From the IMG/VR virus record IMGVR_UViG_2859821903_000001: a DNA stretch of 46,213 nt. One strand, written 5' to 3'. Positions 18,001 to 21,000 of the stretch are shown here, piece after piece. The stretch comes from a virus (Duplodnaviria; Heunggongvirae; Uroviricota; Caudoviricetes). The position numbers are program-made. The stretch's first letter is position 1. Every line of letters begins with the position of its first letter.

Positions 18001-21000
18001 TCTCCGTATCAGTCTCCGTGCCTTATACCGATGTCTGGATGCATAAACCCGTTCAGTTCTACCCGGGTAAACATCCGTGTGAGAAACCGGCGGATATGCT
18101 CAGGCAAATAATCAATGCCAGTAGTCGACCTGGTGATCTGGTTGCTGATTTTTTTATGGGATCCGGTTCCACAATAAAAGCAGCAATGGCGCTGGGGCGT
18201 CGGGCCTTAGGTGTTGAGCTTGAGTCAGAGCGGTTTAACCAGACAGTGAAAGAGATAAACGAGCTGGTGGGAAATAATCTGGTGGCCACGCAGGTGGCCT
18301 TTTTATTTCCATTACACAGCACCCGCATCTGCGAGGTGGGGTTATGAAATCCATGGATAAGTTAACAACGGGTGTCGCCTATGGCACCTCAGCAGGTAGT
18401 GCCGGTTACTGGTTTTTACAGCTGCTCGATAAAGTCACGCCCTCACAGTGGGCAGCAATAGGTGTGCTGGGTAGCCTGGTATTTGGCCTGCTGACGTACC
18501 TGACAAACCTTTATTTCAAGATTAAAGAAGATAAGCGCAAGGCTGCGAGAGGTGAATAATGCCTCCATCATTACGAAAAGCAGTTGCTGCTGCTATTGGT
18601 GGCGGAGCAATTGCTATAGCATCAGTGTTAATCACTGGCCCAAGTGGTGACGATGGCCTGGAAGGTGTCAGCTACATACCATACAAAGATATCGTTGGCG
18701 TATGGACTGTATGTCACGGACACACCGGAAAAGACATCATGCTCGGTAAAACGTATACCAAAGCAGAATGCAAAGCCCTCCTGAATAAAGACCTTGCCAC
18801 GGTCGCCAGACAAATTAACCCGTACATCAAAGTCGATATACCGGAAACAACGCGCGGCGCTCTTTACTCGTTCGTCTACAACGTGGGTGCTGGCAATTTC
18901 AGAACATCGACGCTTCTTCGCAAAATAAACCAGGGCGATATCAAAGGCGCATGTGACCAGCTACGTCGCTGGACATACGCTGGCGGTATGAAGTGGCACA
19001 CTGAATTTGGCCACCTGAACAGAGGTGATATGCTCACCTCAGAACAACACAGGTGCTCCAATGAAAAAAAGAAATTTTAGCGCAGAGTTTAAACGCGAAT
19101 CCGCTCAACTGGTTGTTGACCAGAAATACACGGTGGCAGATGCCGCCAAAGCTATGGATGTTGGCCTTTCCACAATGACAAGATGGGTCAAACAACTGCG
19201 TGATGAGCGTCAGGGCAAAACACCAAAAGCCTCTCCGATAACACCAGAACAAATCGAAATACGTAAGCTGAGGAAAAAGCTACAACGCATTGAAATGGAG
19301 AATGAAATATTAAAAAAGGCTACCGCGCTCTTGATGTCAGACTCCCTGAACAGTTCTCGATAATCGGGAAACTCAGAGCGCATTATCCTGTGGTCACACT
19401 CTGCCAAGTGTTCGGGGTTCATCGCAGCAGCTACAGATACTGGAAAAACCGTCCTGAAAAACCAGACGGCAGACGGGCTGTATTACGCAGTCAGGTACTT
19501 GAGCTACATGGCATCAGCCATGGTTCGGCCGGAGCAAGAAGCATCGCCACAATGGCAACCCGGAGAGGCTACCAGATGGGACGCTGGCTTGCTGGCAGGC
19601 TCATGAAAGAGCTGGGGCTGGTCAGCTGTCAGCAGCCGACTCACCGGTATAAACGTGGTGGTCATGAACATGTTGCTATCCCTAACTACCTTGAAAGGCA
19701 GTTCGCCGTGACCGAGCCAAATCAGGTGTGGTGCGGTGATGTGACCTGTATCTGGACGGGTAAGCGCTGGGCGTACCTCGCCGTTGTTCTCGACCTGTTC
19801 GCAAGAAAACCAGTGGGCTGGGCCATGTCGTTCTCGCCGGACAGCAGGCTCACCATGAAAGCGCTGGAAATGGCATGGGAAACCCGTGGTAAGCCCGGCG
19901 GGGTGATGTTCCACAGCGATCAGGGCAGTCATTATACGAGCAGGCAGTTCCGGCAGTTATTGTGGCGATACCAGATCAGACAGAGTATGAGCCGGCGCGG
20001 AAACTGCTGGATAACAGCCCAATGGAACGCTTCTTCAGGAGTCTGAAGAACGAATGGATGCCGGTGGTGGGTTACGTAAGCTTCAGCGAGGCAGCTCACG
20101 CCATAACGGACTATATCGTTGGATATTACAGCGCACTAAGACCGCACGAATATAACGGTGGGTTACCCCCAAACGAATCGGAAAATCGATACTGGAAAAA
20201 CTCTAACTCGGTGGCCAGTTTTTGTTGACCACTTCAGTAAGCAATGGAAAGGCCTGATGACTCGTCGTGAGATTGAGCGTGAAGTCTGTTTGTGGGGGCA
20301 ACAATGAGCAGAGTAACCGCGATTATCTCCGCTCTGGTTATCTGCATCATCGTCTGCCTGTCGTGGGCGGTCAATCATTACCGTGATAACGCCATCGCCT
20401 ACAAAGAACAGCGAGATAAAAAAGTCAGTGAGCTGAAGCAGGCGACCGCCACCATTACTGACATGCAGCAGCGCCAGCGTTCTGCTGATGCACTCGATGC
20501 TAAATACACGAAGGAGTTAGCTGATGCGAAAGCTGAAAATGATGCTCTTCGGCGCAAGCTTGATAATGGTGGTCGGGTGTTCGTCAAAGGAAAATGCCCT
20601 GTGCCATCCTCAGCCGAAACCTCCAGCGCCTCCGGCATGGGCAATGATGCCACCGTCGAACTCTCTCCAGTTGCTGGACGAAACGTTCTCGGTATCCGGG
20701 ACGGAATCATCAGCGACCAAACAGCACTGAGAACGCTTCAGGAATACATCAGGACGCAATGCCTTCGATGATAGCGATAATTTTACTTATCATCCTTCAC
20801 ATCTGGCTCTGTAGACAGGGTGGTGATCACTTCTGGAGTGAATCCAGATTAAACATCTCATTGCTGATGCTTGATATTGAGCATCTTGCGCGCGGTAAGG
20901 GGCTGCGTTGAGATAAGAGCCAGTCATTACAAATACCAGGATTTAGCCTCGTATTCGCGGGGCTTTTTATTGCCATTACAAAAGCCACTCCCTACAGAGT

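Follow-up and report, generated by a model that had tools for sequence, protein, structure and literature searches.

An IS911 insertion in the SAR endolysin gene of a lambda-like prophage

The stretch of DNA described here, hereafter the window, comprises all 46,213 nucleotides of the IMG/VR record IMGVR_UViG_2859821903_000001 (Caudoviricetes) and is identical to sequence in the 4.27-Mb chromosome deposited as GenBank CP026839.1. By its sequence it is a lambda-like prophage integrated in or at prfC, with a lysis cassette in which a pinholin gene is followed by a signal-anchor-release (SAR) endolysin gene and the spanin genes Rz and Rz1 (Table 1). The endolysin gene is interrupted by a copy of IS911, an insertion sequence (IS) of the IS3 family, which lies after codon 143, 22 codons ahead of the stop, and is codirectional with the phage late operon. 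The copy begins with TGAAGTGG and finishes with CCACTTCA; these terminal inverted repeats are imperfect (74% complementary over 27 nt) and carry the TG...CA ends. A target-site duplication of GTA flanks the element on both sides, and in-silico removal of IS911 together with one GTA gives a clean, uninterrupted open reading frame (ORF) of 165 codons. A first-pass annotation of the same DNA had proposed an IS911 with a GTA duplication that splits the lysozyme gene 22 codons before its stop, and all of this is borne out by the repeats, the duplication and the reconstructed frame. A 23-mer, GCTGGCGGTATGAAGTGGCACAC, can serve as marker sequence of the endolysin::IS911 allele.

By homology the interrupted gene encodes a SAR endolysin of glycoside hydrolase family 24 (GH24, T4-lysozyme-like). 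Against RrrD of E. coli K-12 (PDB 4ZPU) the restored 165-aa protein shows a single difference (N31D), and against the phage 21 endolysin R21 (PDB 3HDE) it shows 3 in 165 residues; its Gly/Ala-rich N-terminal SAR segment (residues 1-30) is identical in both. The catalytic triad E35, D44 and T50, whose positions are given in Table 3 of an earlier study (PMC8228626), is encoded upstream of the insertion and consists of the same residues in 3HDE and 4ZPU. As it stands, the frame runs through the left junction into the IS, where 30 unrelated IS911-encoded residues replace native residues 144-165, and ends at a TAG located 17 nt beyond the orfA start. The Pfam profile PF00959 matches residues 34-146 of this interrupted product, corresponding to positions 3-115 of the 125 in the hidden Markov model, whereas the restored endolysin reaches position 125. 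The gene belongs to the R21/RrrD family by descent, while the present product lacks the full fold of that family, a complete helix bundle that includes the Arg-bearing C-terminal helix.

The first-pass annotation held that only the C-terminal tail of the endolysin was removed, which understates the loss, as the 22 missing residues make up the final GH24 helix and include the conserved Arg152. Residues 147-160 align to helix alpha8 (residues 180-193) of the Acinetobacter endolysin AcLys (PDB 6ET6), with Arg152 aligned to Arg185, and the two proteins, about 45% identical overall, share the motif GGK..KGL..RRE.ER. In AcLys a salt bridge joins the catalytic Glu and this conserved Arg of the C-terminal helix, a well-known feature of endolysins of the P21 and P22 families (PMC6024848), and the Arg-Glu salt bridge was present in all T4-lysozyme-like structures compared in the LysF1 study, including those of DLP12 and P21 (PMC8228626). 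The restored gene shares with AcLys and the other T4-lysozyme-like GH24 endolysins both the Glu/Asp/Thr triad and the C-terminal-helix Arg that bridges the catalytic Glu; in those enzymes the helix is intact, while the endolysin in the window has lost it. Because residues 144-165 hold the last GH24 helix and Arg152, loss of muralytic activity is likely, and the 173-aa product is expected to be misfolded or catalytically crippled, if not dead. The fusion would still be expected to be exported and tethered through its SAR segment.

The genes around the interrupted endolysin point to a cassette of the phage-21 type, namely pinholin, SAR endolysin and embedded Rz/Rz1, of which every gene except the endolysin is intact. 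The pinholin begins with MKSMDK, a dual start at Met1 and Met4, and the stop of its gene overlaps with the start of the endolysin gene. As a small P21-family holin with two transmembrane domains (TMDs) and a dual start, directly upstream of a SAR endolysin, it has the features of the S21 family; the exact protein sequence carries the UniRef name ESSD_ECOLI and is found on at least 1000 contigs. At the other end, the ATG of Rz overlaps the endolysin stop (ATGA), the exact Rz protein is found on 994 contigs, and the gene of the Rz1 lipoprotein is nested in the +1 frame of that of Rz, a type II membrane protein, as in an embedded two-component spanin. That holin and Rz/Rz1 are intact had been noted in the first-pass annotation, and the uninterrupted frames and Pfam matches agree with it. 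Gene order and overlaps are the same as in the cassettes of phage 21 (S21, R21, Rz/Rz1) and of the K-12 prophage DLP12 (essD-rrrD-rzpD/rzoD), from which the window differs in that IS911 splits the endolysin after codon 143, leaving a product without the C-terminal helix and Arg152. With the IS taken out, 1177 bp of the cassette align at 99.9% identity with uninterrupted essD-rrrD-rz cassettes, which many complete E. coli genomes carry. This suggests that the insertion hit an otherwise pristine cassette, and probably did so recently. A 50-aa hydrophobic ORF at 20759-20911 (+) overlaps the end of Rz, and a hypothetical coding sequence is annotated at the equivalent site in phage vB_EcoS-569R4.

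Table 1. Coordinates of the lysis cassette, the IS copies and selected prophage genes in the window (bp, base pairs; IRL and IRR, left and right inverted repeats).
Feature	Position	Strand	Remarks
Integrase gene	385-1608		
IS2, second full-length copy	1902-3232	-	1331 bp; TCAAA duplication
S24-peptidase repressor gene	8061-8735		
Pinholin gene (S21/EssD type, 71 aa)	18344-18559	+	PF04971 'Bacteriophage P21 holin S', E=2e-35; intact
SAR endolysin, 5' part (R21/RrrD type, GH24)	18559-18988	+	codons 1-143 and first base of codon 144; PF00959
Endolysin ORF as it stands	18559-19080	+	173-aa fusion: 143 native + 30 IS911-encoded residues
Target-site duplication, left copy	18986-18988	.	sequence GTA
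IS911 copy (IS3 family)	18989-20236	+	1248 bp; IRL 18989-19015, IRR 20210-20236; 99.8% identity to annotated copies
IS911 orfA (100 aa, HTH_Tnp_1)	19061-19363	+	PF01527; intact
IS911 orfB frame (rve integrase core)	19319-20228	+	split into 19390-20046 and 19962-20228 by 1-nt deletion; PF00665, PF13683
Target-site duplication, right copy	20237-20239	.	sequence GTA
Endolysin, orphaned 3' end	20239-20307	+	last 22 codons + stop; C-terminal helix, R152
Rz i-spanin gene (155 aa)	20304-20771	+	PF03245, E=6e-29; intact
Rz1 o-spanin gene (68-aa ORF)	20524-20730	+	PF06085, E=4e-21; lipobox VVGC; intact
IS2 copy in C-terminal part of tail-tip gene J	39775-41103	+	GTCAG duplication, 39770-39774 and 41104-41108

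In phage-21 lysis, the pinholin depolarises the inner membrane and thereby frees the SAR endolysin, which has been exported by the Sec system and held tethered to the membrane. The freed endolysin refolds and cuts the peptidoglycan, and the Rz/Rz1 spanins then disrupt the outer membrane. In the window, the product of the interrupted gene would keep the SAR anchor and Glu35/Asp44/Thr50 but would lack Arg152, which positions the catalytic Glu and goes with the last helix. Upon induction, the pinholin would then still depolarise and kill the cell, whereas the wall would stay intact, so that neither lysis nor release of particles would follow. The lysis phenotype of this prophage is accordingly predicted to be defective.

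The IS911 copy itself shows 99.8% nucleotide identity to copies annotated in RefSeq as 'IS3-like element IS911 family transposase', with 2 differences over 1249 bp from two intact, IS911-annotated copies. It shares with the RefSeq IS911 (transposase WP_086020965.1) the TG...CA inverted repeats, the orfA/orfB arrangement, the A AAA AAG site for -1 frameshifting and the 3-bp target duplication, and differs in being one base shorter, in an OrfAB cut to 328 aa and in a Tyr to Cys change in the motif DVTY. The slippery heptamer, through which orfB is reached by a -1 frameshift, is intact at 19312-19318, and a 'programmed frameshift' is annotated by PGAP on identical IS911 copies. The shortening is at 20009-20010, where the copy reads GG and the two intact copies have GGG; as assembled, OrfAB has 328 instead of 389 aa, its stop lying six codons short of the catalytic Glu in DD(35)E. 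At face value the copy is therefore non-autonomous, though we distrust this deletion, which may be a sequencing error. The second difference, A to G at 19748, changes the Tyr two residues past the first catalytic Asp; it is unlike a typical homopolymer error and may be a real, possibly inactivating change. Neither a terminator-like site in the IS911 interior on the + strand nor a convincing outward hybrid promoter at IRR turned up, and RNA folding over the left junction gave nothing out of the ordinary (z = -0.66).

Our distrust of the broken orfB stems from the quality of the assembly. Two phages served for comparison: vB_EcoS-569R4, which aligns to the window over 19.3 kb at 98.6% identity, and Ayreon, a viable phage, over 14.9 kb at 98.9%. 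Relative to Ayreon, nine single-base deletions were counted in 14.9 kb, all nine at G or C runs, with no deletion at the 389 A/T runs of at least three bases and no insertion anywhere. The deletion sites fall within 21247-38800 (e.g., 21694, 22192, 22629, 22702, 23271, 24147, 26821, and 35438), and further ones are found at 18269, at 20009-20010 and in the IS2 copy at 39775-41103, where comparison with the other IS2 copy of the window gives the same pattern with two deletions. Such a restriction to deletions and to G/C runs marks consensus error of long-read sequencing rather than mutational decay. These deletions fragment the frames of terminase A, C/Nu3, K/I and J, and lengthen the methylase ORF to 373 aa as against 350 aa in the reference. 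The apparent frameshifts in the large terminase subunit, in other structural genes and in IS911 orfB may thus be sequencing errors, and the reading of the fragmented terminase A and broken orfB as real decay was dropped after the comparison with the two phages. In contrast, the three IS insertions of the window can be relied on, since all have complete ends and each is flanked by a target duplication of its own. Until the record is polished, its other 'pseudogenes' (terminase, capsid, tail and IS transposases) should not be read as decay. The first-pass annotation made no mention of these G/C-homopolymer deletions, nor of the broken orfB or the pinholin/SAR-endolysin type of the cassette.

The insertion was seen in a single genome. 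For the exact 173-aa fusion protein the only contig on record is CP026839.1, none of 5426 complete E. coli genomes showed this arrangement of IS911 and endolysin, and exact left and right junction k-mers had no match in species-representative genomes, JGI metagenomes or IMG/VR. The top E. coli matches at 91% query coverage (H1-H3) were considered as carriers of the same arrangement and rejected, as in H3, the one inspected, rrrD is free of ISEc52, which sits upstream of essD. Elements of the IS3 family do hit genes of the rrrD type at other sites: E. coli 1442 has ISEc52 in its lysozyme gene, and E. coli 2EC1 has both ISEc52 and IS2 in rrrD. As in the window, a GH24 endolysin gene is interrupted there next to an intact Rz; the IS species and positions are however different, the junction is not common to them, and the upstream piece of the lysozyme gene in 1442 measures just 222 nt. 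These cases indicate that the kind of event is recurrent and ordinary. Both the IS and the gene are known, as is this kind of prophage decay, and no new mechanism is involved. Nothing specific on IS911 in an endolysin, nor on the accession CP026839.1, was found in the literature.

A possible second case of insertion at the same site was provided by a 143-aa partial RrrD (P0008), present on nine contigs and ending in the same last residue as the native part of the fusion, and was rejected as a set of contig breaks. The nine draft/Logan contigs come from different assemblies and at least two prophage contexts, and all end within 3 nt of rrrD codon 143. Their last bases, ...GGCGGTAA, continue the native gene, whereas the IS911 junction would read GGTA|TGAAG. 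RrrD partials of 100 and 102 aa are common as well. The break is probably a branch point of the assembly graph in a multi-copy mosaic lysis cassette, with no shared insertion or hot spot.

Taking these lines together, we consider it very probable that a genuine IS911 transposition insertionally inactivated the SAR endolysin of the lambda-like prophage at prfC. The observations on which the insertion stands, namely the IS911 copy, the GTA repeats, the restored ORF and a further IS2 within the tail-tip gene J, cannot have arisen by chance. Misplacement of an IS911 copy during assembly, in a genome rich in IS elements, is very unlikely. The obvious G/C-homopolymer consensus deletions and the absence of the junction from every other collection searched would both suit such an artefact, and the high homopolymer error rate does weigh against our reading. 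Errors of that type, however, do not make 1.25-kb insertions with a target duplication, and a perfect 3-bp direct repeat around complete IS ends, whose removal restores the ORF exactly, is the product of transposition and not of mis-joining. Three further points count against the inactivation itself. The catalytic triad and the SAR domain lie upstream of the insertion and are retained, so that residual activity is possible; the loss of function is argued from structural homology and not from a truncation of R21 or RrrD, no experiment on a comparable endolysin truncation having been found in the literature; and the 4.27-Mb genome may hold further prophages able to provide an endolysin in trans. 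Muralytic activity of the IS-fused endolysin sufficient for lysis, which would make the insertion phenotypically mild, is nevertheless unlikely in our view: the fragment still scores 138 bits against its Pfam profile, but the terminal helix with the conserved Arg that bridges Glu is gone, the last ten positions of the GH24 profile are missing, and thirty unrelated residues are appended.

The knock-out could also be adaptive, as a step of domestication in which useful cargo is kept, or conditional, being reversed by precise excision of the IS with one GTA. Several genes look intact in support of this (the repressor, Q, the integrase and a TIR-domain reverse-transcriptase defence gene), precise removal gives a perfect ORF, and the stx2 gene was reportedly reactivated by precise excision of an IS3-family element in work by Kusumoto in 2000, listed among the references of PMC8136144. 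On the other hand, the insertion is confined to one genome without sign of lineage fixation or of recurrence at the site, the two further IS2 insertions fit a random expansion of IS elements, and the IS911 copy as assembled has no complete transposase, so that we regard an adaptive or conditional role as improbable. A more specific form of reversibility starts from the sense orientation of IS911 in the Q-antiterminated late operon and the lack of a + strand terminator-like site inside it, owing to which induction would drive strong read-through of orfA and orfAB. The insertion would then act as a stress-coupled lysis switch, in which a burst of IS911 transposase or regulator expression is coupled to the SOS response and GTA excision restores the endolysin; we hold this to be highly improbable. 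Insertional inactivation by IS911 is best placed, then, within neutral decay in an IS-rich genome, which appears not to have been selected. The first-pass annotation had suggested that the prophage is domesticated or lysis-defective. The latter is likely given the lost helix and R152, whereas domestication finds no footing: no retained function of benefit to the host is suggested, the three IS insertions look like plain decay, and both junction and fusion occur in one genome only. In practical terms, the endolysin should be annotated as an IS911-interrupted pseudogene and not as a 173-aa lysozyme. The importance beyond annotation is very small, and the warning about homopolymer errors is the most useful by-product.

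The IS2 in J, which had been recognized in the first-pass annotation and is confirmed with its GTCAG duplication, would independently remove the receptor-binding end of the tail tip. The prophage would consequently be scored as defective in both lysis and adsorption (R::IS911, J::IS2). The remaining layout of the prophage is as follows. Positions 1-170 of the window hold the 5' end of prfC, with homology stopping at about 165 and giving way to AT-rich phage DNA and the integrase gene; no transfer RNA gene is found within the window. The second full-length IS2 lies past int, ahead of the leftward early genes, and hits codons 2-3 of a + strand cargo ORF of about 240 aa that matches no Pfam family. 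The repressor gene is followed by a cII-like gene, replication genes, Dam, RusA, KilA-N and Q genes and an N6/N4 methylase gene, and then by the lysis cassette, beyond which lies a lambda/mEp460-like head and tail module, the IS2-interrupted J, and then lom, stf and tfa. Downstream of tfa, the N-terminal part of a TIR-domain protein (45791-46213, - strand; PF13676, PF01582) runs off the window. In E. coli loci that are 99.8% identical, the gene bears the annotation 'TIR domain-containing anti-phage reverse transcriptase' and has a recombinase adjacent, and from its sequence and position it looks like defence cargo at the right end of the prophage.

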